Assembly: GCF_056746865.1 (NCBI RefSeq)
Contig: NZ_CM163382.1
Length of the DNA stretch: 64,000 nt
Reading direction: 5' to 3' (one strand)
Shown here piece by piece: positions 18,743-63,210 of the stretch; position 1 is the first letter of the stretch; every line of letters starts with the position of its first letter. The notes under the pieces were generated by a model. That model saw only the letters and a list, made by a program, of their open reading frames with translations, was not told the origin of the DNA and searched no databases. Made by a program: the position numbers and the translations under genes.

Positions 18743-19891
18743 ATGAGTTCATCGTGTATAGAAGAAGTCAGTGTACCGGATGACAACTGGTACCGTATCG
18801 CCAACGAATTACTTAGCCGTGCCGGTATAGCCATTAACGGTTCTGCCCCGGCGGATATTCATGTGAAAAACCCCGATTTTTTTAAACGCGTTCTGCAGGA
18901 AGGATCGTTGGGGTTAGGCGAAAGTTATATGGATGGCTGGTGGGAATGTGACCGACTGGATATGTTTTTTAGCAAAGTCTTACGCGCAGGTCTCGAGAAC
19001 CAACTCCCCCATCATTTCAAAGACACGCTGCGTATTGCCGGCGCTCGTCTCTTCAATCTGCAGAGTAAAAAACGTGCCTGGATAGTCGGCAAAGAGCATT
19101 ACGATTTGGGTAATGACTTGTTCAGCCGCATGCTTGATCCCTTCATGCAATATTCCTGCGCTTACTGGAAAGATGCCGATAATCTGGAATCTGCCCAGCA
19201 GGCGAAGCTCAAAATGATTTGTGAAAAATTGCAGTTAAAACCAGGGATGCGCGTACTGGATATTGGCTGCGGCTGGGGCGGACTGGCGCACTACATGGCA
19301 TCTAATTATGACGTAAGCGTGGTTGGCGTCACCATTTCTGCCGAACAGCAAAAAATGGCTCAGGAACGCTGCGAAGGCCTGGATGTCACCATTTTGCTGC
19401 AAGATTATCGTGACCTGAACGACCAGTTTGATCGTATTGTTTCTGTGGGGATGTTCGAGCACGTCGGACCGAAAAATTACGATACCTATTTTGCGGTGGT
19501 GGATCGTAATTTGAAACCGGAAGGCATATTCCTGCTCCATACTATCGGTTCGAAAAAAACCGATCTGAATGTTGATCCCTGGATTAATAAATATATTTTT
19601 CCGAACGGTTGCCTGCCCTCTGTACGCCAGATTGCTCAGTCCAGCGAACCCCACTTTGTGATGGAAGACTGGCATAACTTCGGTGCTGATTACGATACTA
19701 CGTTGATGGCGTGGTATGAACGATTCCTCGCCGCATGGCCAGAAATTGCGGATAACTACAGTGAACGCTTTAAACGGATGTTTACCTATTATCTGAATGC
19801 CTGTGCGGGTGCTTTCCGCGCCCGTGATATTCAGCTCTGGCAGGTCGTGTTCTCACGCGGTGTTGAAAACGGCCTTCGAGTGGCTCGCTAA
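18743..19891 (+). CDS. cfa: Cyclopropane-fatty-acyl-phospholipid synthase
   Basis: 382-aa ORF with SAM-binding motif VLDIGCGWG. Confidence 0.96.
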   Translation: MSSSCIEEVSVPDDNWYRIANELLSRAGIAINGSAPADIHVKNPDFFKRVLQEGSLGLGESYMDGWWECDRLDMFFSKVLRAGLENQLPHHFKDTLRIAGARLFNLQSKKRAWIVGKEHYDLGNDLFSRMLDPFMQYSCAYWKDADNLESAQQAKLKMICEKLQLKPGMRVLDIGCGWGGLAHYMASNYDVSVVGVTISAEQQKMAQERCEGLDVTILLQDYRDLNDQFDRIVSVGMFEHVGPKNYDTYFAVVDRNLKPEGIFLLHTIGSKKTDLNVDPWINKYIFPNGCLPSVRQIAQSSEPHFVMEDWHNFGADYDTTLMAWYERFLAAWPEIADNYSERFKRMFTYYLNACAGAFRARDIQLWQVVFSRGVENGLRVAR

Positions 19892-45900: not shown

Positions 45901-46018
45901 TCAGACGATCGGCATAACTTGTCGCCGTATCGCCGGTAAACCCCTGTTGCTCCAGCTCTTGCAAAAAATTAAGCACCAGTTGAACGACGCCGGGTGCCTG
46001 GGAAATCTGTGGAATCAT
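42962..46018 (-). CDS. ydiJ: FAD-linked oxidoreductase with C-terminal Fe-S domain (D-2-hydroxyglutarate dehydrogenase-like)
   Basis: 1018-aa ORF: FAD-binding PCMH domain plus CxxCxxCxxxCP clusters. Confidence 0.9.
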   Translation of the reverse strand: MIPQISQAPGVVQLVLNFLQELEQQGFTGDTATSYADRLTMSTDNSIYQLLPDAVVFPRSTADVALIARLAAQERYSSLIFTPRGGGTGTNGQALNQGIIVDMSRHMNRIIEINPEEGWVRVEAGVIKDQLNQYLKPFGYFFAPELSTSNRATLGGMINTDASGQGSLVYGKTSDHVLGVRAVLLGGDILDTQSLPVELAETLGKTNTAIGRIYNTVYQRCRQQRQLIIDNFPKLNRFLTGYDLRHVFNDEMTEFDLTRILTGSEGTLAFITEARLDITPLPKVRRLVNVKYDSFDSALRNAPFMVEARALSVETVDSKVLNLAREDIVWHSVSELITDVPDKEMLGLNIVEFAGDDETLIDERVNALCARLDELIASQQAGVIGWQVCSELAGVERIYAMRKKAVGLLGNAKGAAKPIPFAEDTCVPPEHLADYIAEFRALLDSHGLSYGMFGHVDAGVLHVRPALDMCDPQQEILMKQISDDVVALTAKYGGLLWGEHGKGFRAEYSPAFFGEELFAELRKVKAAFDPHNRLNPGKICPPEGLDAPMMKVDAVKRGTFDRQIPIAVRQQWRGAMECNGNGLCFNFDVRSPMCPSMKITQNRIHSPKGRATLVREWLRLLADRGVDPLKLEQELPESGVSLRTLIARTRNSWHANKGEYDFSHEVKEAMSGCLACKACSTQCPIKIDVPEFRSRFLQLYHTRYLRPLRDHLVATVESYAPLMARAPKTFNFFINQPLVRKLSEKHIGMVDLPLLSVPSLQQQMVGHRSANMTLEQLEALNAEQKARTVLVVQDPFTSYYDAQVVADFVRLVEKLGFQPVLLPFSPNGKAQHIKGFLNRFAKTAKKTADFLNRMAKLGMPMVGVDPALVLCYRDEYKLALGEERGEFNVLLANEWLASALDSQPVATVSGESWYFFGHCTEVTALPGAPAQWAAIFARFGAKLENVSVGCCGMAGTYGHEAKNHKNSLGIYELSWHQAMQRLPRNRCLATGYSCRSQVKRVEGTGVRHPVQALLEIIK

Positions 46019-46406
46019 TATATTGACCCTTTCCTGCGGTCTGTGATGTAGGTCGATACACTATTCTTTCAGGCGGCTGCAATAGCGCACTGAAAGGTGA
46101 TGTTTATTTACTCTATGGATTTCGAGTTGCAGGAAGGCGGCAAGCGAGTGAACTCCAGGAGCTTACAATAGTAAGTGACTGGGGTGAACGAACGTAGCCG
46201 CAGCACATGCAACTTGAAATACGACGAGTAAATCGTTTGCGTGTTGCCTGAGTTGTTGTACCACATTTTTTTCTAACACGCCCATCAGAATTAAGGGCAG
46301 AATCGGCCTGTTAAAAACCGCTGAAATTGCTCATCATTATGCAGGTGAGTTTCGCGTGTTCACGTCGCGTCGACGATTTGACGCACAAAAAAGGTGAAAA
46401 GTAGTT

Positions 46407-47519
46407 ATGGTAAATGTTCGTCAGCCCAGGGATGTCGCACAAATTCTGCTTTCGGTGCTCTTTTTAGCCATCATGATTGTGGCATGTCTGTGGATTGTAC
46501 AACCCTTTATTCTCGGCTTTGCATGGGCTGGTACGGTGGTTATCGCCACCTGGCCGGTATTGTTACGTTTGCAAAAGATCATGTTTGGTCGCCGGTCTCT
46601 CGCCGTTCTGGTGATGACGCTGTTATTAGTGATGGTGTTTATCATCCCTATTGCCTTGCTGGTTAACAGTATCGTCGACGGCAGCGGCCCGCTAATTAAA
46701 GCCATTTCCAGCGGTGACATGACGTTACCCGATCTGGCGTGGCTTAATACCATTCCGGTGATTGGCGCGAAGCTGTATGCAGGCTGGCACAACTTGCTGG
46801 ATATGGGGGGGACGGCGATCATGGCAAAAGTCCGTCCTTATATTGGCACCACCACCACCTGGTTCGTTGGGCAGGCGGCGCATATCGGGCGCTTTATGGT
46901 GCATTGTGCGCTGATGCTTCTCTTCAGCGCCCTGCTGTACTGGCGCGGTGAACAAGTGGCGCAAGGCATTCGCCATTTTGCAACCCGTCTGGCAGGCGTT
47001 CGTGGAGATGCCGCCGTGCTGCTGGCGGCACAAGCTATCCGCGCGGTGGCGCTGGGTGTTGTGGTGACAGCGTTAGTACAGGCAGTGCTTGGCGGTATCG
47101 GCCTCGCCGTATCCGGCGTACCTTATGCAACTTTGCTCACGGTGTTAATGATCCTCTCCTGCCTTGTCCAGCTTGGACCGTTGCCGGTACTGATTCCGGC
47201 GATTATCTGGCTCTACTGGACTGGCGATACCACCTGGGGAACGGTATTGTTAGTGTGGAGCGGTGTGGTTGGCACGCTGGATAACGTCATCCGCCCAATG
47301 TTAATTCGCATGGGTGCCGATTTACCGCTGATCCTGATTCTCTCTGGCGTTATTGGTGGTTTGATTGCTTTCGGGATGATCGGCCTGTTTATTGGTCCGG
47401 TTCTGTTAGCCGTTTCCTGGCGTCTTTTTGCCGCGTGGGTGGAAGAAGTCCCACCGCCGACTGACCAACCGGAAGAAGTTCTCGAAGAACTTGGCGAAAT
47501 CGAGAAACCGAATAAGTAA
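46407..47519 (+). CDS. ydiK: AI-2E family transporter (PerM-like)
   Basis: 370-aa GTG-initiated hydrophobic ORF. Confidence 0.9.
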   Translation: MVNVRQPRDVAQILLSVLFLAIMIVACLWIVQPFILGFAWAGTVVIATWPVLLRLQKIMFGRRSLAVLVMTLLLVMVFIIPIALLVNSIVDGSGPLIKAISSGDMTLPDLAWLNTIPVIGAKLYAGWHNLLDMGGTAIMAKVRPYIGTTTTWFVGQAAHIGRFMVHCALMLLFSALLYWRGEQVAQGIRHFATRLAGVRGDAAVLLAAQAIRAVALGVVVTALVQAVLGGIGLAVSGVPYATLLTVLMILSCLVQLGPLPVLIPAIIWLYWTGDTTWGTVLLVWSGVVGTLDNVIRPMLIRMGADLPLILILSGVIGGLIAFGMIGLFIGPVLLAVSWRLFAAWVEEVPPPTDQPEEVLEELGEIEKPNK

Positions 47520-47704
47520 TTTCTCATCAGGCGGCTCTGCCGCCTGATTGTTAACCCCTGCTAATTGATATTTGCTTGCTCTTCCCCATATTTTCCTGCT
47601 TACCGCCATTCAGCTGGTAGTACCTGTCGCAAATTCTTTACAGTTTTTAAACTAATGAGACGAATCTGATCGACGCAAAAAGTCCGTATGCCTACTATTA
47701 GCTC

Positions 47705-47809
47705 ACGGTTATAAATCAACATATTGATTTATAAGCATGGAAATCCCCTGAGTGAAACAACGAATTGCTGTGTGTAGTCTTTGCCCATCTCCCACGATGG
47801 GCTTTTTTT
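47705..47809 (+). ncRNA. rprA: Small regulatory RNA RprA (rpoS translational activator)
   Basis: ACGGTTATAAATCAACATATTGATTTATAAGCATGGAAATCCCCTGAGTGAAACAACGAATTGCTGTGTGTAGTCTTTGCCCATCTCCCACGATGGGCTTTTTTT matches the known 105-nt RprA, including the terminator hairpin and U-run. Confidence 0.93.
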
Positions 47810-47947
47810 TAACATTTTTCCGCTTCGCTACCTCGCCCCTCACGCTTTCCAATAATGTTGCACAAGATACTGTGACTCTCTTCAAGCCGTCAGCAGGCTG
47901 ATAATGTTATTTATATTTTATTGTTTATTTCATGCAGCCATTACACG

Positions 47948-48304
47948 ATGAACGCTTATGAACTCCAGGCACTCCGCCATATTTTTGCCATGACTATTGA
48001 TGAATGCGCGACCTGGATTGCCCAGACCGGTGACAGTGAAAGCTGGCGTCAATGGGAAAATGGCAAATACGCCATTCCTGATCGTGTAGTCGAGCAACTG
48101 TTGGCTATGCGTCAGCAAAGAAAAAAACATCTTCATGCCATCATAGAGAAAATAAATAACCGCATCGGCAACAACACCATGCGTTTTTTCCCCGACTTAA
48201 CCGCGTTTCAACAAGTCTACCCTGATGGCAATTTTATTGACTGGAAGATCTATCAATCGGTAGCCGCTGAATTATATGCACACGATCTGGAGCGCCTTTG
48301 TTAA
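47948..48304 (+). CDS. ydiL: Uncharacterised protein YdiL (DUF1870)
   Basis: ORF trimmed to internal ATG (MNAYELQALRHIFAMTIDE...), giving 118 aa. Confidence 0.85.
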   Translation: MNAYELQALRHIFAMTIDECATWIAQTGDSESWRQWENGKYAIPDRVVEQLLAMRQQRKKHLHAIIEKINNRIGNNTMRFFPDLTAFQQVYPDGNFIDWKIYQSVAAELYAHDLERLC

Positions 48305-48402
48305 TTTTCCAAAGAAAGGAATTGTCGTTGTTACAACAATAATGAACGGATGCTGACACAACATCGCTTCACTTTTTAAAGCACCTTTGCTAAGTAGAAC
48401 CT

Positions 48403-49153
48403 ATGAAAAATCCCTATTTCCCTACCGCACTGGGGTTGTATTTTAATTACCTGGTGCATGGTATGGGCGTCATTTTGATGAGCCTGAATATGGCCTCGCT
48501 GGAGACGCTTTGGCAGACTAATGCCGCAGGCGTCTCAATAGTTATCTCATCGCTGGGTATTGGTCGATTAAGTGTCTTGCTTTTTGCAGGATTATTATCC
48601 GATCGCTTTGGTCGCCGCCCTTTTATCATGCTCGGGATGTGCTGCTATATGGCCTTCTTTTTTGGCATCCTGCACACCAATAACATTATTATCGCTTATG
48701 TTTTGGGCTTTCTGGCGGGAATGGCAAACAGTTTTCTCGATGCAGGCACATATCCCAGTTTGATGGAAGCTTTTCCACGCTCACCGGGGACAGCCAATAT
48801 TTTAATTAAAGCATTTGTTTCCAGCGGACAATTTTTGTTACCGCTAATCATTAGCCTGTTAGTGTGGGCTGAACTGTGGTTCGGTTGGTCCTTTATGATT
48901 GCTGCAGGCATTATGTTTATTAACGCTCTGTTTTTATACCGTTGTACGTTCCCACCCCATCCGGGTCGTCGCTTACCTGTCATAAAGAAAACCACCAGAT
49001 CTACGGAACATCGCTGTTCAATTATCGATTTAGCCAGTTATACCTTATATGGTTATATCTCAATGGCAACGTTTTATCTGGTTAGCCAGTGGCTGGCACA
49101 GTACGGACAATTTGTTGCAGGCATGTCATACACTATGTCGATCAAACTACTTA
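48403..49153 (+). pseudogene. ydiM: 5' fragment of MFS transporter gene ydiM, interrupted by IS5
   Basis: MFS N-terminal half; the reading frame runs into the IS5 left end at 49154 and terminates 23 nt inside it. Confidence 0.88.
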
Positions 49154-50348
<1,195 letters not shown>

Positions 50349-50352
50349 CTTA

Positions 50353-50816
50353 GTATCTACACCGTGGGTTCGCTGCTTTGTGTATTTATTACCGCTCCAC
50401 TCATTCGTAATACCGTTCGCCCAACAACATTACTGATGCTGTACACCTTTATCTCATTTATTGCTCTGTTTACCGTCTGCCTGCATCCCACATTTTATGT
50501 GGTGATAATATTTGCTTTTGTCATTGGTTTTACCTCTGCTGGAGGTGTTGTGCAAATTGGCCTGACGTTAATGGCTGAACGTTTCCCCTATGCTAAAGGT
50601 AAAGCTACAGGGATCTATTACAGTGCGGGCAGTATTGCAACATTTACCATTCCGTTGATTACGGCTCATCTGTCCCAAAGAAGTATTGCCGATATTATGT
50701 GGTTCGATACCGCCATCGCTGCCATCGGCTTTTTACTGGCACTGTTTATCGGCTTACGCAGCCGCAAAGAAACGCGGCATCACTCGCTAAAGGAAAATGT
50801 CGCTCCGGGTGGGTAA
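50353..50816 (+). pseudogene. ydiM: 3' fragment of ydiM downstream of IS5
   Basis: Joining 48403..49153 to 50353..50816 gives a 1215-nt ORF (404 codons plus stop) encoding one 12-TM MFS transporter. Confidence 0.88.
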
Positions 50817-51042
50817 TGCAATATTCTTTTCAGGTCATGCAAGATCTTACGGATAAATAACTATTTCTGCGCTAACTAAGGAAAATCGCGATCAAAAACA
50901 AACTATGACATGCAATATTCCTGGAAACATAAACTTTATGCCATGTACCCAGGGAAAATCATCTTCAGTATAGTAATTATGTAAACCGTCGGAGAACAAT
51001 ACGTACGGTAACGAAATTATCTTTCAGCAAGGAGCTGTGAAA

Positions 51043-52308
51043 ATGTCTCAAAATAAGGCTTTCAGCACGCCATTTATCCTGGCTGTTCTTTGTATTTACT
51101 TCAGCTATTTCCTGCACGGCATTAGTGTTATTACGCTTGCCCAAAATATGTCATCTCTGGCAGAAAAGTTTTCCACTGACAACGCGGGCATTGCCTATTT
51201 AATTTCCGGTATCGGTTTGGGGCGATTGATCAGTATTTTATTCTTCGGTGTGATCTCCGATAAGTTTGGTCGTCGGGCGGTGATATTAATGGCAGTAATA
51301 ATGTATCTGCTATTCTTCTTTGGTATTCCCGCTTGCCCGAATTTAACTCTCGCCTACGGTCTGGCAGTGTGCGTAGGTATCGCTAATTCAGCGCTGGATA
51401 CGGGTGGCTACCCCGCGCTCATGGAATGCTTTCCGAAAGCCTCTGGTTCGGCGGTCATACTGGTTAAAGCGATGGTGTCATTCGGGCAAATGTTCTACCC
51501 AATGCTGGTGAGCTATATGTTGCTCAATAACATCTGGTACGGCTATGGGCTGATTATTCCGGGTATTCTGTTTGTACTGATCACACTGATGCTGTTGAAA
51601 AGCAAATTCCCCAGCCAGTTGGTGGACGCCAGCGTAGCTAATGAATTACCGCAAATGAACAGCAAACCGTTAGTCTGGCTGGAAGGTGTTTCATCAGTAC
51701 TGTTCGGTGTAGCCGCATTCTCGACCTTTTATGTGATTGTGGTGTGGATGCCCAAATATGCGATGGCTTTTGCTGGTATGTCAGAAGCTGAGGCATTAAA
51801 AACCATCTCTTATTACAGTATGGGCTCGTTGGTCTGTGTCTTTATTTTTGCCGCACTGCTGAAAAAAATGGTCCGGCCCATCTGGGCTAATGTATTTAAC
51901 TCTGCACTGGCAACAATAACAGCTGCCATTATCTACCTGTACCCTTCTCCATTGGTGTGTAATGCCGGAGCCTTTGTTATCGGTTTCTCAGCAGCTGGCG
52001 GCATTTTACAGCTCGGCGTTTCGGTCATGTCAGAGTTTTTCCCAAAAAGCAAAGCCAAAGTCACCAGTATATATATGATGATGGGTGGACTGGCTAATTT
52101 TGTTATTCCGCTGATTACCGGTTATCTGTCGAACATCGGCCTGCAATATATCATTGCTCTCGATTTTACTTTCGCGCTGCTGGCCCTGATTACCGCAATT
52201 ATTGTCTTTATCCGCTATTACCGCGTTTTCATTATTCCTGAAAATGATGTGCGGTTTGGCGAGCGTAAATTTAGCACCCGGTTAAACACAATTAAGCATA
52301 GAGGTTAA
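51043..52308 (+). CDS. ydiN: MFS transporter
   Basis: About 421-aa ORF (track start 51037), paralogous to ydiM; upstream of ydiB-aroD. Confidence 0.9.
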
Positions 52309-52319
52309 AGGAGTTAATT

Positions 52320-53186
52320 ATGGATGTTACCGCAAAATACGAATTGATTGGGCTGATGGCCTATCCCATCCGCCACAGTTTATCGCCTGAAATGCAGAAT
52401 AAAGCCTTAGAAAAAGCGGGATTGTCATTTACCTATATGGCCTTTGAAGTGGATAACGATAGTTTTCCCGGAGCAATTGAAGGATTAAAAGCCCTCAAAA
52501 TGCGCGGAACTGGTGTATCAATGCCGAACAAACAACTGGCGTGTGAATATGTTGATGAATTAACGCCAGCGGCCAAACTGGTGGGTGCCATCAACACCAT
52601 CGTTAATGATGATGGCTATCTGCGTGGCTATAACACCGACGGCACGGGCCATATTCGCGCCATTAAAGAGAGCGGTTTTGATATCAAAGGCAAAACGATG
52701 GTGCTGTTAGGGGCCGGAGGTGCCTCAACGGCGATTGGCGCGCAGGGGGCAATTGAAGGTTTAAAAGAAATTAAACTCTTTAACCGTCGGGATGAGTTCT
52801 TCGATAAAGCCCTCGCCTTCGCGCAGCGGGTTAACGAAAACACCGATTGTGTCGTCACGGTTACCGATCTCGCCGATCAGCAAGCCTTTGCTGAAGCCCT
52901 GGCTTCCGCCGACATTTTAACCAATGGCACAAAAGTGGGTATGAAACCCCTTGAGAATGAATCATTGGTTAATGATATCAGTCTGTTACATCCGGGACTT
53001 CTGGTCACTGAATGCGTGTATAACCCGCATATGACGAAGTTATTGCAGCAGGCGCAACAAGCTGGTTGCAAAACGATTGATGGATACGGCATGTTGTTGT
53101 GGCAAGGGGCTGAACAGTTCACGTTATGGACTGGCAAAGATTTCCCTCTGGAATATGTTAAACAGGTCATGGGGTTCGGTGCCTGA
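52320..53186 (+). CDS. ydiB: Quinate/shikimate 5-dehydrogenase (NAD(P))
   Basis: 288-aa AroE-paralog ORF with Rossmann motif LGAGGAS. Confidence 0.93.
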
Positions 53187-53216
53187 CAGGCTGACCGCGT
53201 GCAGAAAGGGTAAAAA

Positions 53217-53975
53217 ATGAAAACCGTAACTGTAAAAGATCTCGTCATTGGTACGGGCGCACCTAAAATCATCGTCTCGCTGATGGCGAAAGATATCGCC
53301 AGCGTGAAATCTGAAGCTCTCGCCTATCGTGAAGCGGACTTTGATATTCTGGAATGGCGTGTTGACCACTATGCCGACCTCTCCAATGTGGATTCTGTCA
53401 TGGCGGCGGCAAAAATTCTCCGTAAAACCATGCCAGAAAAACCGCTGCTGTTTACCTTCCGCAGTGCCAAAGAAGGCGGCGAGCAGGCGATTTCCACCGA
53501 GGCTTATATTGCACTCAATCGTGCAGCCATCGACAGCGGCCTGGTTGATATGATCGATCTGGAGTTATTTACCGGCGATGATCAGGTTAAAGAAACCGTC
53601 GCCTACGCCCACGCGCATGATGTGAAAGTTGTCATGTCCAACCATGACTTCCATAAAACGCCGGAAGCCGAAGAAATCATTGCCCGTCTGCGCAAAATGC
53701 AGTCCTTCGACGCCGATATTCCTAAGATTGCGCTGATGCCGCAAAGTACCAGCGATGTGCTGACGTTGCTTGCCGCGACCCTGGAGATGCAGGAGCAGTA
53801 TGCCGATCGTCCAATCATCACGATGTCAATGGCAAAAACTGGCGTAATTTCTCGTCTGGCTGGTGAAGTATTTGGCTCGGCGGCAACTTTTGGTGCGGTA
53901 AAAAAGGCCTCTGCACCAGGGCAAATCTCGGTAAATGATTTGCGCACGGTATTAACTATTTTACACCAGGCATAA
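53217..53975 (+). CDS. aroD: 3-dehydroquinate dehydratase, type I
   Basis: 252-aa ORF, recognised as AroD. Confidence 0.95.
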
Positions 53976-54119
53976 GCAATAATATTTCGGCGGGAACATC
54001 CTCCCCCGCCGAACTAAAAAAATATATTTAACCGTATTTAATAAAAATATTTCGTGAGTCTCTGTGCGCTAATTCTCCATCTGGCGTAGGGAAAATCACA
54101 CCTGAATCAGGAATTAACA

Positions 54120-55715
54120 ATGAAACCTGTAAAACCACCTCGTATTAATGGACGAGTGCCGGTCCTGTCGGCACAGGAAGCGGTGAATTATATTCCCGAC
54201 GAAGCAACACTTTGTGTGTTAGGCGCTGGCGGCGGTATTCTGGAAGCCACCACGTTAATTACAGCTCTTGCTGATAAATATAAACAGACTCAAACGCCAC
54301 GTAATTTATCGATTATTAGTCCGACAGGGCTTGGCGATCGCGCCGACCGTGGTATTAGTCCGCTGGCGCAAGAAGGTCTGGTGAAATGGGCATTATGCGG
54401 TCACTGGGGACAATCGCCGCGTATTTCTGATCTCGCAGAACAAAATAAAATTATTGCTTATAACTATCCACAAGGTGTACTTACACAAACCTTACGCGCC
54501 GCCGCAGCCCACCAGCCTGGTATTATTAGTGATATTGGCATCGGAACATTTGTCGATCCACGCCAGCAAGGCGGCAAACTGAATGAAGTCACTAAAGAAG
54601 ACCTGATTAAACTGGTCGAGTTTGAAAACAAAGAATATCTCTATTACAAAGCGATAGCGCCAGATATTGCCTTCATTCGCGCTACCACCTGCGACAGCGA
54701 AGGCTACGCCACTTTTGAAGATGAGGTGATGTATCTCGACGCATTGGTTATTGCCCAGGCGGTGCACAATAACGGCGGTATTGTGATGATGCAGGTGCAG
54801 AAAATGGTTAAGAAAGCCACGCTGCATCCTAAATCTGTCCGTATTCCGGGTTATCTGGTGGATATTGTGGTGGTCGATCCGGATCAAACCCAACTGTATG
54901 GCGGTGCGCCGGTTAACCGCTTTATTTCTGGTGACTTCACCCTTGATGACAGCACCAAACTTAGCCTGCCCCTAAACCAACGTAAATTAGTTGCACGGCG
55001 CGCATTATTCGAAATGCGTAAAGGCGCGGTGGGGAATGTCGGCGTCGGTATTGCTGACGGCATTGGCCTGGTCGCCCGGGAAGAAGGTTGTGCTGATGAC
55101 TTTATTCTGACGGTAGAAACAGGTCCGATTGGCGGAATTACTTCACAGGGTATCGCCTTTGGCGCGAACGTGAATACCCGCGCCATTCTGGATATGACGT
55201 CCCAGTTTGATTTTTATCACGGTGGTGGTCTGGATGTTTGTTATTTGAGTTTTGCTGAAGTCGACCAGCACGGTAACGTCGGCGTGCATAAATTCAATGG
55301 CAAAATCATGGGCACCGGTGGATTTATTGATATCAGTGCCACTTCGAAGAAAATCGTTTTCTGCGGCACATTAACTGCGGGCAGTTTAAAAACAGAAATT
55401 ACCGACGGCAAATTAAATATCGTCCAGGAAGGACGGGTGAAGAAATTTATTCGGGAACTACCGGAAATTACTTTCAGCGGAAAAATCGCTCTCGAGCGAG
55501 GGCTGGATGTTCGTTATATCACTGAGCGCGCAGTATTCACACTGAAAGAAGACGGCCTGCATTTAATCGAAATCGCCCCTGGCGTCGATTTACAAAAAGA
55601 TATTCTCGACAAAATGGATTTCACCCCAGTGATTTCGCCAGAACTCAAACTGATGGACGAAAGATTATTTATCGATGCGGCGATGGGTTTTGTCCTGCCT
55701 GAAGCGGCTCATTAA
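54120..55715 (+). CDS. ydiF: Fused alpha/beta acyl-CoA:acetate CoA-transferase
   Basis: 531-aa ORF, family I CoA-transferase. Confidence 0.9.
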   Translation: MKPVKPPRINGRVPVLSAQEAVNYIPDEATLCVLGAGGGILEATTLITALADKYKQTQTPRNLSIISPTGLGDRADRGISPLAQEGLVKWALCGHWGQSPRISDLAEQNKIIAYNYPQGVLTQTLRAAAAHQPGIISDIGIGTFVDPRQQGGKLNEVTKEDLIKLVEFENKEYLYYKAIAPDIAFIRATTCDSEGYATFEDEVMYLDALVIAQAVHNNGGIVMMQVQKMVKKATLHPKSVRIPGYLVDIVVVDPDQTQLYGGAPVNRFISGDFTLDDSTKLSLPLNQRKLVARRALFEMRKGAVGNVGVGIADGIGLVAREEGCADDFILTVETGPIGGITSQGIAFGANVNTRAILDMTSQFDFYHGGGLDVCYLSFAEVDQHGNVGVHKFNGKIMGTGGFIDISATSKKIVFCGTLTAGSLKTEITDGKLNIVQEGRVKKFIRELPEITFSGKIALERGLDVRYITERAVFTLKEDGLHLIEIAPGVDLQKDILDKMDFTPVISPELKLMDERLFIDAAMGFVLPEAAH

Positions 55716-55728
55716 CAGGAGTATCACG

Positions 55729-56880
55729 ATGGATTTTTCTTTAACTGAAGAACAAGAACTGCTGCTGGCCAGTATTCGCGAACTGATTACGACTAACTTT
55801 CCGGAAGAGTATTTCCGCACCTGCGATCAAAACGGGACATACCCGCGTGAATTTATGCGGGCACTGGCGGATAACGGTATTTCCATGCTTGGCGTGCCGG
55901 AAGAATTTGGTGGTATCCCTGCGGATTACGTCACCCAAATGCTGGCGCTGATGGAAGTGTCAAAATGCGGTGCCCCGGCATTTTTGATCACCAACGGTCA
56001 ATGTATTCACAGTATGCGCCGTTTCGGTTCTGCAGAGCAGCTACGTAAAACGGCGGAAAGCACCCTGGAAACGGGTGATCCCGCCTATGCCCTGGCATTG
56101 ACGGAACCAGGCGCAGGCTCAGATAACAACAGCGCCACCACCACTTACACGCGTAAAAACGGCAAGGTTTACATCAACGGCCAGAAAACCTTTATTACCG
56201 GTGCGAAAGAGTACCCGTATATGCTGGTGCTGGCGCGCGATCCGCAACCGAAAGATCCCAAAAAAGCCTTCACCCTGTGGTGGGTCGACTCCAGTAAGCC
56301 CGGCATTAAGATTAACCCGCTGCATAAAATCGGCTGGCATATGCTCAGCACCTGCGAAGTCTATCTCGACAACGTGGAAGTTGAAGAGAGCGACATGGTG
56401 GGCGAAGAAGGAATGGGTTTCCTCAATGTGATGTATAACTTTGAGATGGAGCGCCTGATCAACGCCGCGCGCAGCACCGGCTTTGCCGAGTGTGCCTTTG
56501 AAGATGCCGCCCGCTATGCCAACCAGCGTATCGCTTTTGGTAAACCCATTGGTCATAACCAGATGATCCAGGAAAAACTGGCGCTGATGGCGATTAAGAT
56601 CGACAACATGCGCAACATGGTGTTGAAAGTGGCATGGCAAGCCGATCAGCATCAGTCACTGCGCACCAGCGCGGCGCTGGCAAAACTGTACTGCGCACGT
56701 ACCGCAATGGAAGTTATTGATGATGCGATTCAAATCATGGGCGGTCTGGGCTATACCGATGAGGCGCGCGTCTCTCGCTTCTGGCGTGATGTCCGTTGTG
56801 AACGTATCGGCGGCGGTACAGACGAAATTATGATTTACGTAGCGGGTCGGCAGATCCTGAAAGATTATCAGAACAAATAA
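55729..56880 (+). CDS. ydiO: Acyl-CoA dehydrogenase-family protein (FAD)
   Basis: ORF trimmed to ATG at 55729 (MDFSLTEEQELL...), giving 383 aa. Confidence 0.9.
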   Translation: MDFSLTEEQELLLASIRELITTNFPEEYFRTCDQNGTYPREFMRALADNGISMLGVPEEFGGIPADYVTQMLALMEVSKCGAPAFLITNGQCIHSMRRFGSAEQLRKTAESTLETGDPAYALALTEPGAGSDNNSATTTYTRKNGKVYINGQKTFITGAKEYPYMLVLARDPQPKDPKKAFTLWWVDSSKPGIKINPLHKIGWHMLSTCEVYLDNVEVEESDMVGEEGMGFLNVMYNFEMERLINAARSTGFAECAFEDAARYANQRIAFGKPIGHNQMIQEKLALMAIKIDNMRNMVLKVAWQADQHQSLRTSAALAKLYCARTAMEVIDDAIQIMGGLGYTDEARVSRFWRDVRCERIGGGTDEIMIYVAGRQILKDYQNK

Positions 56881-56922: not shown

Positions 56923-57834
56923 TTATCCAACAAGACTTACCGGTTGAGGAAATTCAGATAAGATTTCTTGTTCCGCAAAACAGTTTTTAAATTGCCTGCG
57001 GTAATCGCTGGGCGAACAGCCGACATGGCGCAAAAACAGTTTGGCAAAGTGATCGACATTTTCATAACCCACACGCCAGGAGATCTCTGCCTGTGATAAT
57101 TCAGTATTAGTGAGTGACCATTTCGCTTCCGTCATACGCCGTTGAATAACATAGTTAATAGGGGAAATGCGATACTCTTTGGTAAATTCATGGCAAATAT
57201 AACTGACGCTGGCACGAAACTTTTTCGATAACTGCTCTAAAGTGATTTTTTCGCGATAGTTATTATTCAGATAGAAAAGAATATCTTTTATCAGAACATC
57301 TTTTTTAATATATCCCTGCTCCGAACGATAAGCATTTTTAAAGTTTTCGTAGTAAAGAATTGCTAACGTATAGGCAAAGGCGTCCCATAACGAAGATGTT
57401 TGGCTATTTTTACTTTGCGGCAAAATCACACTTAGCTCATTAAATAAGGTTTTAATGACTTCTTTTCCCTGCCCTGCGGCAATTACCGGGCAAGAATGCG
57501 GTTGCAGTAGCTGATTTTCCTCAGCCCCCTGAAACTGAAAGCCGTACAGCGCACAAGTACACGTCGTTGCCGGATCGTTAACGTCAGAGGCCACCGCATG
57601 CAGCCTGCCACGTTCTATCACCACAATGTCATCGGCGTGCGCGACATATAACGAAGAATCGATGGTAAACCTTGCTACCCCTTTCTTGACGTAAATCAAC
57701 TCAGTTTCATTGTCATGAACGTGATGTCCGGACTCCCATTTTGGATCATCGCTAAATGCAAAACGTGAAAGCCGTGGCGTTTTACCGGCGACAAACAGCG
57801 TTTCGCTGGCGTTATCAAAACAGCGTTGATACAT
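56923..57834 (-). CDS. ydiP: AraC-family transcriptional regulator
   Basis: 303-aa ORF with N-terminal cupin-like domain and C-terminal AraC HTH; divergent from ydiQRST. Confidence 0.88.
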   Translation of the reverse strand: MYQRCFDNASETLFVAGKTPRLSRFAFSDDPKWESGHHVHDNETELIYVKKGVARFTIDSSLYVAHADDIVVIERGRLHAVASDVNDPATTCTCALYGFQFQGAEENQLLQPHSCPVIAAGQGKEVIKTLFNELSVILPQSKNSQTSSLWDAFAYTLAILYYENFKNAYRSEQGYIKKDVLIKDILFYLNNNYREKITLEQLSKKFRASVSYICHEFTKEYRISPINYVIQRRMTEAKWSLTNTELSQAEISWRVGYENVDHFAKLFLRHVGCSPSDYRRQFKNCFAEQEILSEFPQPVSLVG

Positions 57835-58149
57835 GACAACCTCCCTATTCCATGAGCAAGCAAAAACAATATATGCCGGATAAAATACGGCGTGTATTGC
57901 GGTTATACAACCGCGTTTAGCGAGAGCTAAACAAGATTATTTACACTGAATGCAAGATTGTACGGTCATGGAATAACTATATTGCCGCAAATTGCACTTT
58001 TGTTTTAGCGATCGCATTTTTTTTGCAAGATTGTTGGCAAGGAAAACAGCTTGCTCCGTCGAAAACCCCGCACCGCTATCGCACACTATTTTCAGACCAT
58101 TTTTACCTTCCATCGGAGATGGTTCCGTATGCGACTCACAGGAGAAATC

Positions 58150-58914
58150 ATGAAAATAATAACCTGCTTTAAGCTGGTGCCTGAAGAACAGGACATTGTT
58201 GTCACTCCAGAATATACCCTGAATTTCGACAATGCCGACGCCAAAATCAGCCAGTTCGATCTCAATGCCATTGAAGCTGCAAGCCAGATTGCAACAGATG
58301 ACGATGAGATAGCCGCGCTGACCATTGGCGGCTCATTGTTGCAGAACTCGAAAGTGCGTAAAGACGTGCTATCCCGCGGGCCGCATAGCCTGTATTTGGT
58401 GCAGGATGCGCAACTTGAACATGCACTGCCTCTCGATACCGCAAAGGCGCTGGCGGCAGCAGTTGAAAAGATCGGCTTCGATTTACTGATCTTTGGTGAA
58501 GGTTCCGGCGACCTTTATGCCCAGCAGGTTGGCTTGCTGGTCGGAGAAATTCTGCAACTTCCGGTGATTAATGCAGTGAGTGCTATTCAGCGTCAGGGCA
58601 ATACACTGGTGATTGAACGCACGCTTGAAGATGATGTTGAAGTTATTGAGCTCTCTGTTCCAGCCGTGCTCTGCGTCACCTCCGATATTAATATGCCACG
58701 CATTCCTTCGATGAAAGCCATTCTCGGCGCGGGTAAAAAACCGATAAATCAGTGGCAGGCAAGTGACATTGGCTGGAGCCAGAGCGCGCCACTTGCTGAG
58801 CTGACCGGCATTCGCGTACCGCCGCAAACAGAACGTAAGCACATCATTCTCGATAACGATTCGCCGGAGGCCATTGCCGAGCTGGCGGAATATCTGAAGA
58901 AAGCCCTGAACTGA
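58150..58914 (+). CDS. ydiQ: Electron transfer flavoprotein beta-subunit homolog
   Basis: ORF trimmed to ATG at 58150 (MKIITCFKLVPEEQD...) with AGGAGA RBS; 254 aa. Confidence 0.9.
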   Translation: MKIITCFKLVPEEQDIVVTPEYTLNFDNADAKISQFDLNAIEAASQIATDDDEIAALTIGGSLLQNSKVRKDVLSRGPHSLYLVQDAQLEHALPLDTAKALAAAVEKIGFDLLIFGEGSGDLYAQQVGLLVGEILQLPVINAVSAIQRQGNTLVIERTLEDDVEVIELSVPAVLCVTSDINMPRIPSMKAILGAGKKPINQWQASDIGWSQSAPLAELTGIRVPPQTERKHIILDNDSPEAIAELAEYLKKALN

Positions 58915-58933
58915 AGCCTACGGAGAAGAAACG

Positions 58934-59872
58934 ATGAGTCAATTAAACAGCGTCTGGGTCTTTAGCGATAATCCTGAACGTTATGCTGAACTGTTTGGCG
59001 GCGCGCAGCAATGGGGCCAACAGGTGTATGCCATTGTACAAAATACCGACCAGGCGCAGGCAGTTATGCCTTATGGTCCAAAATGTATTTATGTTCTTGA
59101 GCAAAATGATGCGCTGCAACGTACTGAAAATTACGCCGAAAGCATTGCTGCCCTGCTGAAAGATAAACATCCTTCTATGTTGCTGCTGGCCGCGACGAAA
59201 CGCGGTAAAGCTCTGGCAGCACGGTTAAGTGTGCAACTGAATGCGGCGCTGGTGAACGATGCCACTGCGGTGGATATTGTCGATGGTCACATTTGCGCCG
59301 AACACCGGATGTATGGCGGGTTAGCGTTCGCACAGGAAAAGATCAACAGCCCGCTGGCGATCATTACCCTTGCACCCGGTGTTCAGGAACCGTGCACCAG
59401 TGATACCGCTCATCAGTGCCCGACAGAAACGGTACCTTATGTTGCCCCGCGTCATGAAATTCTCTGTCGCGAACGCCGTGCGAAAGCGGCAAGCAGCGTG
59501 GACCTGAGCAAAGCAAAACGTGTGGTTGGCGTCGGTCGTGGTCTGGCAGCGCAGGATGACCTGAAAATGGTCCACGAACTGGCGGCGGTGCTGAATGCTG
59601 AAGTCGGCTGTTCACGTCCAATTGCCGAAGGCGAGAACTGGATGGAGCGTGAACGTTATATCGGTGTCTCCGGCGTGTTGCTGAAATCCGATCTCTACCT
59701 GACGCTGGGGATCTCCGGGCAGATCCAGCATATGGTTGGCGGCAACGGCGCAAAAGTGATTGTCGCCATCAATAAAGATAAAAATGCGCCAATCTTCAAC
59801 TATGCCGACTACGGTCTGGTGGGCGATATCTACAAAGTCGTCCCTGCCCTGATTAGCCAGTTGAGCCGCTAA
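58934..59872 (+). CDS. ydiR: Electron transfer flavoprotein alpha-subunit homolog
   Basis: 312-aa ORF, EtfA-like FAD-binding C-terminus. Confidence 0.9.
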   Translation: MSQLNSVWVFSDNPERYAELFGGAQQWGQQVYAIVQNTDQAQAVMPYGPKCIYVLEQNDALQRTENYAESIAALLKDKHPSMLLLAATKRGKALAARLSVQLNAALVNDATAVDIVDGHICAEHRMYGGLAFAQEKINSPLAIITLAPGVQEPCTSDTAHQCPTETVPYVAPRHEILCRERRAKAASSVDLSKAKRVVGVGRGLAAQDDLKMVHELAAVLNAEVGCSRPIAEGENWMERERYIGVSGVLLKSDLYLTLGISGQIQHMVGGNGAKVIVAINKDKNAPIFNYADYGLVGDIYKVVPALISQLSR

Positions 59873-59927
59873 TTCCCCTTTCAACCACATCTCCCGCTGT
59901 AAACGCAGCGGGAAGGGAGCATAACGC

Positions 59928-61217
59928 ATGTCGGATGACAAATTTGATGCCATTGTGGTCGGTGCGGGCGTTGCCGGTAGCGTTGCCGCACTGGTCATGG
60001 CGCGAGCCGGGCTGGATGTCCTGGTGATAGAACGCGGCGACAGTGCCGGATGTAAAAACATGACCGGCGGGCGTCTTTATGCCCACACACTTGAAGCGAT
60101 TATTCCAGGCTTTGCAGCATCAGCGCCGGTAGAACGCAAGGTCACACGCGAGAAAATCTCCTTCTTAACCGAAGAAAGCGCCGTTACCCTCGACTTTCAC
60201 CGCGAGCAACCAGATGTTCCGCAACACGCGTCTTATACCGTATTGCGTAATCGTCTGGACCCGTGGTTGATGGAACAAGCCGAGCAGGCGGGCGCGCAGT
60301 TTATCCCGGGCGTACGCGTCGATGCGCTGGTTCGTGAAGGAAACAAGGTCACTGGCGTGCAGGCCGGGGATGATGTTCTTGAAGCGAATGTGGTGATTCT
60401 GGCTGATGGCGTTAACTCGATGCTTGGCCGCTCGCTGGGAATGGTTTCCGCTTCCGATCCGCATCATTACGCTGTTGGTGTTAAAGAGGTTATTGGCTTC
60501 ACACCAGAACAGATCAACGATCGCTTTAATATTACGGGCGAGGAAGGTGCCGCCTGGCTGTTTGCCGGTTCCCCTTCTGACGGCCTGATGGGTGGCGGAT
60601 TCCTCTATACCAATAAGGATTCCATATCGTTGGGGCTGGTTTGTGGATTGGGTGATATCGCCCATGCGCAAAAAAGCGTGCCGCAAATGCTGGAAGATTT
60701 TAAACAACACCCCGCCATTCGCCCGCTGATTAGCGGCGGCAAACTGCTTGAATATTCCGCGCATATGGTGCCGGAAGGCGGTCTGGCAATGGTGCCGCAG
60801 CTGGTTAACGATGGCGTGATGATCGTTGGTGACGCCGCAGGCTTCTGCCTGAATTTGGGTTTTACAGTTCGCGGCATGGATTTAGCCATTGCATCAGCTC
60901 AGGCTACCGCCACAACAGTGATTGCCGCCAAAGAACGCGCGGATTTCTCCGCCAGCAGTCTGGCGCAATACAAACGTGAGCTGGAACAAAGTTGTGTTAT
61001 GCGCGATATGCAGCATTTCCGCAAGATCCCGGCGCTGATGGAAAATCCGCGCCTGTTTAGTCAGTATCCGCGCATGGTCGCCGACATCATGAACGATATG
61101 TTCACCATTGACGGCAAACCAAACCAGCCGGTACGCAAAATGATCATGGGACACGCGAAAAAAATTGGGCTGATCAACTTGCTGAAAGATGGCATTAAGG
61201 GAGCAACCGCGCTATGA
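59928..61217 (+). CDS. ydiS: FAD-dependent oxidoreductase (FixC-like ETF-quinone oxidoreductase family)
   Basis: 429-aa ORF with N-terminal dinucleotide-binding motif AIVVGAGVAGS. Confidence 0.9.
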   Translation: MSDDKFDAIVVGAGVAGSVAALVMARAGLDVLVIERGDSAGCKNMTGGRLYAHTLEAIIPGFAASAPVERKVTREKISFLTEESAVTLDFHREQPDVPQHASYTVLRNRLDPWLMEQAEQAGAQFIPGVRVDALVREGNKVTGVQAGDDVLEANVVILADGVNSMLGRSLGMVSASDPHHYAVGVKEVIGFTPEQINDRFNITGEEGAAWLFAGSPSDGLMGGGFLYTNKDSISLGLVCGLGDIAHAQKSVPQMLEDFKQHPAIRPLISGGKLLEYSAHMVPEGGLAMVPQLVNDGVMIVGDAAGFCLNLGFTVRGMDLAIASAQATATTVIAAKERADFSASSLAQYKRELEQSCVMRDMQHFRKIPALMENPRLFSQYPRMVADIMNDMFTIDGKPNQPVRKMIMGHAKKIGLINLLKDGIKGATAL

Positions 61218-61507
61218 GCCAGAACGCTACGGTTAACGTCGACATCAAATTAGGCGTCAATAAATTCCATGTTGATGAGGGCCACCCGCATATCATTTTG
61301 GCGGCAAATCCCGATATCAATGAATTCCGTAAATTAATGAAAGCCTGCCCTGCCGGACTTTATAAGCAGGATGACGCCGGCAACATTCATTTTGATTCTG
61401 CCGGTTGTCTGGAGTGCGGCACCTGTCGGGTGCTGTGCGGCAACACTATTCTCGAACAGTGGCAATATCCCGCAGGCACCTTCGGTATTGATTTTCGCTA
61501 CGGCTAA
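61214..61507 (+). CDS. ydiT: Ferredoxin-like protein (FixX-like)
   Basis: 97-aa ORF with Cys cluster; 4-nt overlap with ydiS. Confidence 0.88.
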   Translation: MSQNATVNVDIKLGVNKFHVDEGHPHIILAANPDINEFRKLMKACPAGLYKQDDAGNIHFDSAGCLECGTCRVLCGNTILEQWQYPAGTFGIDFRYG

Positions 61508-61509: not shown

Positions 61510-63210
61510 ATGCATCCCACAGGCCCGCATCTCGGGCCTGATGTTCTGTCTCGAGAGTCCAAAATGAAAGTGACATTAACGTTTAACGAACAACGTCGTG
61601 CGGCGTATCGTCAGCAAGGGCTATGGGGCGATGCTTCGCTGGCCGATTACTGGCAGCAGACCGCTCGTGCGATGCCAGACAAAATTGCCGTGGTCGATAA
61701 TCATGGAGCATCGTACACCTATAGCGCGCTCGATCACGCCGCGAGCTGTCTGGCAAACTGGATGTTAGCGAAGGGTATTGAATCAGGCGATCGCATCGCA
61801 TTTCAACTGCCTGGCTGGTGTGAATTTACCGTTATCTATCTTGCCTGCCTGAAAATCGGTGCGGTTTCCGTACCGCTGTTGCCTTCCTGGCGGGAAGCAG
61901 AACTAGTATGGGTGCTCAATAAGTGTCAGGCAAAAATGTTCTTTGCTCCGACGTTGTTTAAACAAACGCGTCCGGTAGATTTAATCCTGCCGCTGCAAAA
62001 TCAGCTTCCACAACTACAACAACTTGTCGGCGTGGACAAACTGGCTCCCGCCACCTCTGCTCTCTCATTAAGTCAGATTATCGCCGACAATACTCCTCTA
62101 ACCACGGCGATAACGGTCCACGGCGATGAATTAGCCGCGGTGCTGTTTACCTCCGGAACCGAGGGTCTGCCAAAGGGCGTGATGCTAACGCATAACAATA
62201 TTCTCGCCAGTGAGCGGGCTTATTGCGCGCGGTTGAATCTGACCTGGCAGGATGTCTTTATGATGCCTGCGCCACTTGGTCATGCAACGGGCTTTCTGCA
62301 TGGCGTAACGGCACCATTCTTAATTGGCGCTCGCAGCGTGTTGTTAGATATTTTCACTCCTGATGCGTGTCTCGCGCTGCTTGAGCAGCAGCGTTGCACC
62401 TGTATGCTCGGCGCAACGCCGTTTGTCTATGATCTTTTGAATTTACTGGAGAAACAACCCGCTGACCTTTCAGCGCTGCGCTTCTTTCTTTGCGGCGGGA
62501 CCACAATCCCCAAAAAAGTGGCGCGTGAATGCCAGCAGCGCGGCATTAAATTATTAAGTGTTTATGGTTCCACAGAAAGTTCGCCGCACGCAGTGGTGAA
62601 TCTCGACGATCCTTTGTCGCGCTTTATGCACACCGATGGTTACGCTGCCGCAGGTGTTGAGATTAAAGTGGTCGATGACGCACGCAAGACCTTACCGCCA
62701 GGTTGCGAAGGTGAAGAAGCCTCGCGTGGCCCCAATGTGTTTATGGGGTATTTTGATGAACCTGAATTAACCGCCCGTGCCCTGGATGAAGAAGGCTGGT
62801 ATTACAGCGGCGATCTCTGCTGCATGGATGAGGCCGGCTATATAAAAATAACCGGGCGCAAGAAAGATATTATTGTCCGCGGCGGCGAAAATATTAGCAG
62901 CCGTGAAGTAGAAGATATTTTATTGCAGCATCCTAAAATTCACGATGCCTGTGTGGTTGCGATGCCCGATGAACGTTTAGGTGAACGCTCATGCGCTTAT
63001 GTCGTGCTGAAAGCACCGCATCATTCATTATCGCTGGAAGAGGTGGTGGCTTTTTTTAGCCGTAAACGGGTCGCGAAATATAAATATCCTGAACATATCG
63101 TGGTAATCGAAAAACTACCGCGCACTGCCTCAGGTAAAATACAAAAGTTTTTGTTAAGGAAAGATATTATGCGGAGATTAACTCAGGATGTCTGTGAAGA
63201 GATTGAATAA
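61510..63210 (+). CDS. fadK: Short-chain acyl-CoA synthetase (anaerobic), AMP-binding family
   Basis: ORF 61510..63210 (566 aa) with AMP-binding signature; an alternative start at 61564 (MKVTLTF...) would give 548 aa. Confidence 0.88.
   Translation: MHPTGPHLGPDVLSRESKMKVTLTFNEQRRAAYRQQGLWGDASLADYWQQTARAMPDKIAVVDNHGASYTYSALDHAASCLANWMLAKGIESGDRIAFQLPGWCEFTVIYLACLKIGAVSVPLLPSWREAELVWVLNKCQAKMFFAPTLFKQTRPVDLILPLQNQLPQLQQLVGVDKLAPATSALSLSQIIADNTPLTTAITVHGDELAAVLFTSGTEGLPKGVMLTHNNILASERAYCARLNLTWQDVFMMPAPLGHATGFLHGVTAPFLIGARSVLLDIFTPDACLALLEQQRCTCMLGATPFVYDLLNLLEKQPADLSALRFFLCGGTTIPKKVARECQQRGIKLLSVYGSTESSPHAVVNLDDPLSRFMHTDGYAAAGVEIKVVDDARKTLPPGCEGEEASRGPNVFMGYFDEPELTARALDEEGWYYSGDLCCMDEAGYIKITGRKKDIIVRGGENISSREVEDILLQHPKIHDACVVAMPDERLGERSCAYVVLKAPHHSLSLEEVVAFFSRKRVAKYKYPEHIVVIEKLPRTASGKIQKFLLRKDIMRRLTQDVCEEIE

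Follow-up and report, generated by a model that had tools for sequence, protein, structure and literature searches.

Within a 64,000-nucleotide stretch of an Escherichia coli genome (NCBI RefSeq assembly GCF_056746865.1, contig NZ_CM163382.1; hereafter the window), the adjacent genes ydiN, ydiB and aroD encode a transporter of the major facilitator superfamily (MFS), a quinate/shikimate dehydrogenase and a dehydroquinase. All three are ordinary core E. coli genes in an operon-like run. Their comparative context suggests that they form an uptake-and-interconversion unit for hydroaromatic acids, which would act functionally together with ydiF, ydiO, ydiP, ydiQRST and fadK. We tentatively propose, as a reading that has a real chance of being right and a somewhat larger one of being wrong, that the trio provides the substrate-specific entry to an 11-gene quinate/shikimate hydrogenation system, ydiN-ydiB-aroD-ydiF-ydiO-ydiP-ydiQRST-fadK. 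The initial annotation had described a module of transporter, dehydrogenase and dehydroquinase in tight linkage that ended at aroD. Its gene identities, coordinates and linkage agree exactly with RefSeq and the family models, while its downstream limit appears too narrow, as the comparative context ties the trio to the next eight genes.

The feature as such is already known: it is the K-12 locus with an IS5 insertion in the neighbouring gene. The salvage function that had been read into it is not new either, since co-induction of the genes, effects of ydiN deletion and phylogenomics have been published. The cluster-level hypothesis, which draws on comparative genomics, may be new. Our literature search returned no published tie of ydiF or ydiO to ydiB, ydiN or shikimate, and a 2023 phylogenomic study (PMC10588857) makes no mention of ydiF or ydiO. 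The comparative context thus provides a testable hypothesis for ydiF, ydiO, ydiP, ydiQRST and fadK. If true, it would give the orphan genes ydiF, ydiO, ydiQRST and fadK a physiological substrate and provide a candidate shikimate reductase of Sutterella wadsworthensis, and it bears on how common gut bacteria dispose of two acids plentiful in coffee, fruit and vegetables, quinate and shikimate.

The three genes are intact and lie on the same strand (Table 1), with intergenic gaps of 11 bp (ydiN-ydiB) and 30 bp (ydiB-aroD). RefSeq starts ydiN at the ATG at 51043; the mechanical open reading frame (ORF) begins at a GTG at 51037. Strain GMM076, the best match to our 8-kb query (99.9% identity), carries the identical three genes with identical boundaries in its RefSeq annotation. 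YdiB matched the quinate/shikimate dehydrogenase equivalog NF009390 with 667.5 bits (cut-off 349) over residues 1-288 of 288 and aligned end to end with PDB 1NPD/1O9B (E = 5e-193), and AroD matched the type I dehydroquinase model TIGR01093 with 291.5 bits (cut-off 139.3) and aligned end to end with the PDB 1QFE/1GQN group. Catalytic residues were found in both enzymes, namely E86, H143 and the Schiff-base lysine K170 in AroD, and the catalytic Lys/Asp dyad K71 and D107 in YdiB. The K-12 YdiB, one residue (P36S) apart from the window allele, has a dual substrate range (quinate and shikimate) and dual cofactor use, and AroD is the sole biosynthetic dehydroquinase of E. coli. Among the curated family models, YdiN gave generic MFS matches only, several of them weak and full-length. 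Pfam MFS_1 (PF07690) is recorded for the representative of its 99%-identical cluster, a search of solved structures with YdiN gave no match, and TCDB places the protein in 2.A.1.15 (per PMC10588857). A 668-aa fusion of YdiN with YdiB (protein P0007; MFS and shikimate dehydrogenase domains, 99% identical) is encoded in one E. coli assembly; an indel or an assembly artefact spanning the 11-bp gap probably accounts for it.

Gene order around the trio in other lineages

We anchored searches on YdiN and YdiO homologues, read the neighbourhoods and scored them by tblastn with the window proteins; a scan of genome contigs gave at least eight true homologue loci among the matches listed. At least six gene orders keep the trio together with ydiF, ydiO, ydiQRST and fadK, and these occur in Enterobacterales, Sutterella and four metagenomic lineages. 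With N, B and D for ydiN, ydiB and aroD, F and O to T for the respective ydi genes and K for fadK, the order in E. coli, Citrobacter and Brenneria is N-B-D-F-O, then P on the opposite strand, then Q-R-S-T-K. Sutterella (L004), identified by its 90% protein cluster, has K-T-S-R-Q divergent from N-B-D-F-O. L030/L031 (GC 42%) have an AraC gene divergent from N-F-O-Q-R-B-D-S-T, and their dehydrogenase clears the YdiB equivalog with 545 bits. L036 reads MFS-MFS-F-O-Q-R-B-D, followed by ApbA-like and MaoC-like genes, L037 reads MFS-F-O-Q-R-D-S-T-K, and L038 reads B-D-ACAD-MFS-ACAD-Q-R-S-T-K-Dfx-F-O, where ACAD denotes an acyl-CoA dehydrogenase. The pair ydiB-aroD is embedded in the set of CoA transferase, ACAD and electron-transfer flavoprotein (ETF) genes in L030 and L036, as is aroD in L037. 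Because GC content spans 38-58%, these clusters are not recent copies, and a gene set that keeps together through such reshuffling is classical evidence for a shared function.

Shikimate is present in faeces, and its enoate serves Eggerthella lenta and S. wadsworthensis as a proven respiratory acceptor whose reduction stimulates growth (Little et al.). The latter, a shikimate enoate reducer with a growth benefit, holds a complete ydi-like cluster, a correlation that is circumstantial. In this betaproteobacterial gut species the ten-gene set shares 51-83% protein identity with E. coli and has a GC content of its own (58%), which suggests that the whole set passed horizontally between gut lineages long ago.

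In Firmicutes, flavoenzymes of the enoate reductase type stand directly next to ydiB-MFS-aroD. Two Secundilactobacillus loci have a 765-aa FMN_bind + FAD_binding_2 + FMN_red protein beside the trio, a Streptococcus metagenome-assembled genome has a 969-aa Oxidored_FMN + FMN_bind + FAD_binding_2 protein, and Carnobacterium has a 692-aa BaiCD/FadH-like Fe-S flavoenzyme. The nearest solved relatives of these proteins are soluble fumarate reductases, urocanate reductase and old-yellow-enzyme reductases. Whiting and Coggins reportedly described in the 1970s that lactobacilli hydrogenate quinate and shikimate to dihydroshikimate. The Firmicutes trio adjoins enzymes of the kind known as flavin enoate reductases of urocanate, fumarate, cinnamate and shikimate (Little et al.), whereas E. 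coli has no flavin reductase beside the trio and the CoA-dependent ACAD/ETF set stands there instead.

In Telmatospirillum (L005), a YdiN homologue with 52% identity is neighboured by a TetR regulator, a type II dehydroquinase, a shikimate dehydrogenase and a dehydroshikimate dehydratase that resembles QuiC (full-length match, 811 bits). The cluster is truly catabolic, and it therefore supports the import of quinate or shikimate as the role of the YdiN family. The established E. coli shikimate transporter ShiA is an MFS protein like YdiN, and its deletion affects the shikimate titre similarly (PMC8788726), but it is encoded by a separate gene elsewhere on the chromosome, and the substrate of YdiN is putative.

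Some loci showed further peculiarities. Secundilactobacillus odoratitofui carries an extra ydiB paralogue and genes for 3-deoxy-D-arabinoheptulosonate 7-phosphate (DAHP) synthase and dehydroquinate (DHQ) synthase (L013, 852-3884), just upstream of two more MFS/ydiB pairs and a ydiB-MFS-aroD-flavin reductase run, which makes this an unusually dense hydroaromatic locus. Brenneria (L003, L012) carries a gene for shikimate kinase between ydiL and ydiM; in L003, a LysR regulator also stands divergently between ydiM and ydiN, and this form of the control region is absent from E. coli.

A sequence element common to two operon leaders

The leader regions of ydiN and ydiQ share a sequence element. The 16-mer ATGCAAGATNNTACGG has exactly two copies in the window, one 205 bp upstream of ydiN (50837) and one 199 bp upstream of ydiQ (57950); the former, ATGCAAGATCTTACGG, is our candidate operator. 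An additional copy of the octamer TGCAAGAT lies 126 bp upstream of ydiQ (58024). Since the 16-mer pattern was picked after the fact in the window, the fair test of TGCAAGAT lies in other lineages. Citrobacter and Brenneria each have two octamers per ydiP-ydiQ spacer, and E. albertii has one upstream of ydiN, all of them directed at the downstream gene. The equivalent spacers of Sutterella, L030 and L038 are non-alignable and contain TGCAAGAT 7 times in 3,361 bp (expected 0.11; 0/20,000 shuffles), and the remaining 48 kb of the same three loci contain it once. The octamer was not found in L036 or L037.

The obvious candidate binder of TGCAAGAT is YdiP, a regulator of the AraC type, or in L030 and L038 its homologues. 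The ydiP-ydiQ spacer also contains a chromatin immunoprecipitation (ChIP) peak of FNR, and the supplements of the YdiP ChIP-seq work do not mention ydiQ, ydiN, ydiF, ydiO or ydiB. The ydiM-ydiN spacer additionally contains an exact 11-bp direct repeat, ATGCAATATTC (50816-50826 and 50910-50920), which also occurs at 19145-19155. We dropped this 11-mer as a control element in favour of TGCAAGAT, as its frequency in the window is not above chance.

A possible hydrogenation pathway and its rivals

YdiB oxidises quinate to 3-dehydroquinate, AroD dehydrates this to 3-dehydroshikimate, and YdiB can reduce the product to shikimate. In the proposed system, YdiN would import quinate or shikimate, and the sequence of oxidation, dehydration and reduction would convert quinate to shikimate without net redox change, creating a ring enoate. 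FadK would prime, and YdiF recycle, the CoA thioester of shikimate or dehydroshikimate, and YdiO would reduce the ring C=C bond, for which YdiQR and YdiST would supply the electrons. The cell would thereby gain an anaerobic electron sink on the plan of the carnitine (cai/fix) and caffeate (car) systems; as an alternative fate, shikimate could be salvaged into chorismate. YdiP would control the system through the TGCAAGAT sites. Such a cytoplasmic, CoA-dependent hydrogenation of dietary quinate and shikimate in E. coli and Sutterella is conceivable, yet we would sooner expect this reading to be wrong than right.

Family scans fit the proposed chemistry loosely. For YdiO, crotonobetainyl-CoA dehydrogenase ranks second among the families and cyclohexane-1-carbonyl-CoA dehydrogenases match more weakly; for FadK, cyclohexanecarboxylate-CoA ligase ranks second. 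YdiQ and YdiS exceed the cut-offs for FixA (322; cut-off 219) and FixC (642; cut-off 610), whereas YdiO stays below that for CaiA (452; 540), YdiT below that for FixX (144; 166) and FadK below that for CaiC (243; 651). Pfam CoA_trans is recorded for ydiF orthologues at other loci. Both caiTABCDE with fixABCX and the wider ydi cluster comprise a transporter, a CoA transferase, a CoA ligase, an ACAD-type enoyl-CoA reductase and FixABCX-type proteins. They differ in that YdiF is a family I and not a family III CoA transferase, and YdiB and AroD stand in place of the CaiD hydratase, so the ydi cluster would work like cai/fix but is paralogous and not orthologous to it, as judged from the protein families. 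The caffeate system carABCDE of Acetobacterium woodii resembles the ydi cluster in its parts list: it handles an unsaturated carboxylate of plant origin by means of a CoA transferase, a ligase, an ACAD-type enoyl-CoA reductase and an electron-transfer flavoprotein, though its substrate and energy coupling may differ.

Several points weigh against the hydrogenation system. FadK has been characterised on short- and medium-chain fatty acids and YdiF on short acyl-CoAs, ydiO and ydiQRST are assigned to anaerobic fatty-acid metabolism, and expression of aroD is required for biosynthesis whatever the cluster does. Hydrogenation of quinate or shikimate by E. coli is purely putative, as are hydroaromatic substrates for YdiF, FadK and YdiO. 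YdiN scored 40.9 bits with the aromatic acid:H+ symporter model TIGR00895, far below its cut-off of 418.55. YdiO homologues that are more distant (60-74% identity), from Desulfovibrio, E. albertii and one further lineage (L032, L034, L035), lie in the same cassette of ACAD, ETF, FixCX, ligase and MFS genes, but with a family III CoA transferase and without ydiB or aroD; the link to the trio is therefore specific to the close YdiO orthologues plus L038. The cassette is modular, and in its ydi version the part that sets the substrate at the front seems to be ydiB-aroD. Brenneria and L038 have a shikimate kinase gene close to the cluster, and Secundilactobacillus has genes for DAHP and DHQ synthase there, which favours salvage or biosynthesis. 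YdiP has been assigned to cold-shock control in published work. Finally, the shikimate-induced reductase of E. lenta is a flavin reductase and Sutterella has many such enzymes, so its ydi-like cluster is circumstantial evidence; the transcriptomics of Little et al. covered E. lenta and Holdemania only.

The alternative that survives best, which we consider possible but doubtful, is salvage only: YdiN would take up hydroaromatic acids, YdiB and AroD would feed 3-dehydroshikimate or shikimate to chorismate, and adjacency to ydiF-ydiO-ydiQRST-fadK would be meaningless. This fits the published physiology. As summarised in PMC4585142, Johansson and Liden (2006) found ydiN, ydiB and aroD co-induced under carbon limitation in a shikimate producer. 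After deletion of ydiN the titre of shikimate rose about 1.3-fold, an effect attributed to blocked re-uptake (PMC8788726). Hu et al. placed YdiN, YdiL and YdiM in one group with the Aro genes and described ydiN and ydiB deletions as aromatic auxotrophs (PMC2672614), and according to Khalfaoui-Hassani et al. about 75% of YdiM/YdiN homologues adjoin shikimate-pathway genes (PMC10588857). The genes for shikimate kinase, DAHP synthase and DHQ synthase that lie close by in some lineages point in the same direction. The auxotrophy, however, could stem from polarity of the deletion cassettes on aroD, which, if it is the cause, argues for co-transcription. Salvage only would also leave unexplained why ydiB-aroD are embedded in the CoA-transferase/ACAD/ETF set (L030, L036, L037), why this set persists through six rearrangements, why enoate reductases stand beside the Firmicutes trio and why two operon leaders have a motif in common.

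An overflow or export valve, with YdiN as an exporter of hydroaromatic by-products and YdiB working in reverse to turn surplus dehydroquinate into quinate and thereby buffer the pathway, seems quite improbable to us. Johansson and Liden (2006), as cited in PMC4585142, did propose YdiN as an exporter of aromatic by-products, or as a transporter of shikimate or its by-products, and ydiB is responsible for the quinate by-product of production strains, from which it is routinely deleted (PMC4585142); metabolic engineers remove ydiB and ydiN for better shikimate production. These observations come from engineered overproducers, though, the raised external titre after ydiN deletion is a better fit to import, and the Telmatospirillum homologue belongs to a catabolic, and hence importing, cluster.

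Catabolism of quinate or shikimate as carbon sources via protocatechuate, as in the qui, qsu and qa clusters, can practically be dismissed: although transporter, dehydrogenase and dehydroquinase resemble the first steps of such clusters and a YdiN homologue stands in one of them in Telmatospirillum, no dehydroshikimate dehydratase or protocatechuate gene is annotated in the 20 kb around the trio (ydiH to fadK), and E. coli is not known to grow on quinate or shikimate. We rejected this function for the locus for lack of the dehydratase. The same gene separates the E. coli trio from the qui (Acinetobacter, Pseudomonas), qsu (Corynebacterium) and Telmatospirillum clusters, which share the transporter, the quinate/shikimate dehydrogenase and a dehydroquinase with it but have a dehydroshikimate dehydratase, ring cleavage and a type II instead of a type I dehydroquinase. 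Of the contrast that the initial annotation drew between quinate/shikimate utilisation or salvage and a purely biosynthetic organisation, salvage is thus a reasonable (and already published) reading, whereas utilisation as a carbon source finds no dehydratase nearby.

Transcription of the trio and the IS5 insertion in ydiM

The trio has the order, genes, gaps and lengths of K-12 ydiN-ydiB-aroD (b1691-b1693). With IS5 removed in silico, the window is 98.2% identical to K-12 MG1655 over 10 kb around the trio, with 3 residue differences in YdiN, 1 in YdiB (P36S) and 2 in AroD. At this identity the window comes from an E. coli strain other than K-12, and we rejected its assignment to K-12; the other difference from K-12 is the IS5 in the upstream ydiM. 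The trio was matched in 5,425 of 5,426 complete E. coli genomes and at least 80% of it was found at one place in 5,326; the next nine kilobases, ydiF to fadK, reached at least 80% in 5,346. About 100 complete genomes have less than 80% of the trio at one place. In strain MB50 the matches are limited to aroD and part of ydiB, and ydiN can therefore be lost while aroD is retained.

Table 1. Positions in the window of the trio, its flanking genes and the sequence features discussed in the text.
Feature	Position	Strand	Description	Basis or remark
RprA	47705-47812		Small RNA gene between ydiK and ydiL	Rfam
ydiM, 5' fragment	48403-49153	+	MFS transporter, ydiN paralogue	ORF enters IS5 left end, stop at 49176
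IS5	49154-50348	+	Insertion sequence of 1,195 bp	Transposase 49222-50202
ydiM, 3' fragment	50353-50816	+		In silico IS5 excision
ydiM-ydiN native spacer	50817-51042	+	226 bp	1 SNP relative to K-12
Candidate operator	50837-50852	+	In ydiM-ydiN spacer
ydiN	51043-52308	+	MFS transporter, 421 aa	ORF list, RefSeq annotation, family models
ydiB	52320-53186	+	NAD(P)-dependent quinate/shikimate dehydrogenase, 288 aa	RefSeq annotation, family, PDB, catalytic residues
aroD	53217-53975	+	Type I 3-dehydroquinate dehydratase, 252 aa	RefSeq annotation, family, PDB, catalytic residues
GC-rich hairpin	53986-54013		Begins 10 nt past aroD stop	Followed on + strand by A-run, no T-run
ydiF	54120-55715	+	Family I CoA transferase	NF052271, CoA-transferase subunit models
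ydiO	55729-56880	+	Acyl-CoA dehydrogenase/enoyl-CoA reductase, CaiA paralogue
ydiP	56923-57834	-	AraC-family regulator
Octamer copies in ydiP-ydiQ spacer	57950-57965 and 58024-58031	+		Motif search
ydiQ, ydiR, ydiS, ydiT	58150-61507	+	FixABCX-like electron-transfer flavoprotein, ETF-quinone oxidoreductase-like and ferredoxin-like proteins
fadK	61564-63210	+	Acyl-CoA ligase

Close spacing makes co-transcription of ydiN, ydiB and aroD likely. Each gene is preceded by a Shine-Dalgarno sequence, and the only internal terminator-like matches on the + strand lie at 51869-51889 inside ydiN and have weak T tails. Our consensus promoter scan found no sigma-70-like + strand site upstream of ydiN; its sole + strand match lies inside aroD. 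A separate aroD promoter was reportedly mapped in the 1980s. The GC-rich hairpin behind aroD is not a canonical terminator, because an A-run takes the place of the T-run on the + strand. It may terminate weakly or in both directions, or else stabilise RNA between aroD and ydiF, and transcription may continue past it into ydiF, 144 bp downstream.

Upstream of the trio, ydiM is interrupted by an element with the features of IS5: a length of ~1.2 kb, 16-bp terminal inverted repeats (GGAAGGTGCGAACAAG / GGAAGGTGCGAATAAG, with repeat ends GGAAGGTGCGAAC/TAAG), a transposase of the IS5 family (365.7 bits with NF033581, cut-off 140) and a 4-bp target duplication. The duplication reads CTTA (49150-49153 and 50349-50352), and TTAG fits too if the IS5 boundaries move by one base. 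Excision of IS5 with one duplication copy gives back a 404-aa YdiM that is colinear with that of K-12. The disruption of ydiM next to the trio is thus as the initial annotation had it, but the trio does not follow immediately: 694 bp lie between the right end of IS5 and the ydiN start codon. IS5 inactivates ydiM and, as judged from the sequence, leaves the control region of ydiN intact.

Two relatives carry insertions of their own. The exact IS5 junctions of the window, taken singly, occur in 0 of the 5,426 complete genomes. GMM076 has a separate IS5 in ydiM (L001, 6925-8119), 230 bp further upstream and with the duplication TTAA, and EECO1006 has one near the ydiM 5' end (L039, about 1400-2570); both have the same orientation as in the window. 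The YdiK, YdiL, YdiN and YdiB proteins of the three strains are identical, and their IS5 sites in ydiM are three distinct ones. Among the complete genomes, 5,290 have an intact ydiM (at least 80% at one place), 68 lack it and about 68 more carry it split or in part, and IS1 insertions were also seen; it is missing or broken in about 2.5%. As the gene has been lost or split through various events including IS1, it is dispensable and occasionally lost.

The effect of IS5 on the trio is probably little. A measurable change in ydiN-ydiB-aroD expression, by read-through from IS5 or ydiM or by an enhancer-like effect of IS5, is unlikely in our view, albeit not far-fetched. IS5 is oriented like the operon, and read-through from its side is possible because the + strand has no terminator-like site between IS5 and ydiN; the independent insertions of the same orientation in the two close relatives also speak for such an effect. 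Against it, IS5 ends upstream of ydiN by 694 bp in the window and by about 925 bp and about 1,200 bp in the two relatives, distances that make a large effect unlikely, and activation by IS5 at bgl, glpFK and flhDC works at shorter range. Moreover, the native spacer and the candidate operator are undamaged, and the varied losses of ydiM fit the plain loss of a dispensable gene.

Disruption of ydiM may have consequences of its own. In K-12, ydiM is needed for an active bo3 quinol oxidase and affects copper homeostasis (PMC10588857), and if this result carries over, its loss may lower bo3 oxidase activity in the window strain. Further upstream, an Rfam scan of 46000-56000 detected no RNA element in or near the trio and returned a single hit, the small RNA RprA (118.5 bits, full length), which is located as in K-12.

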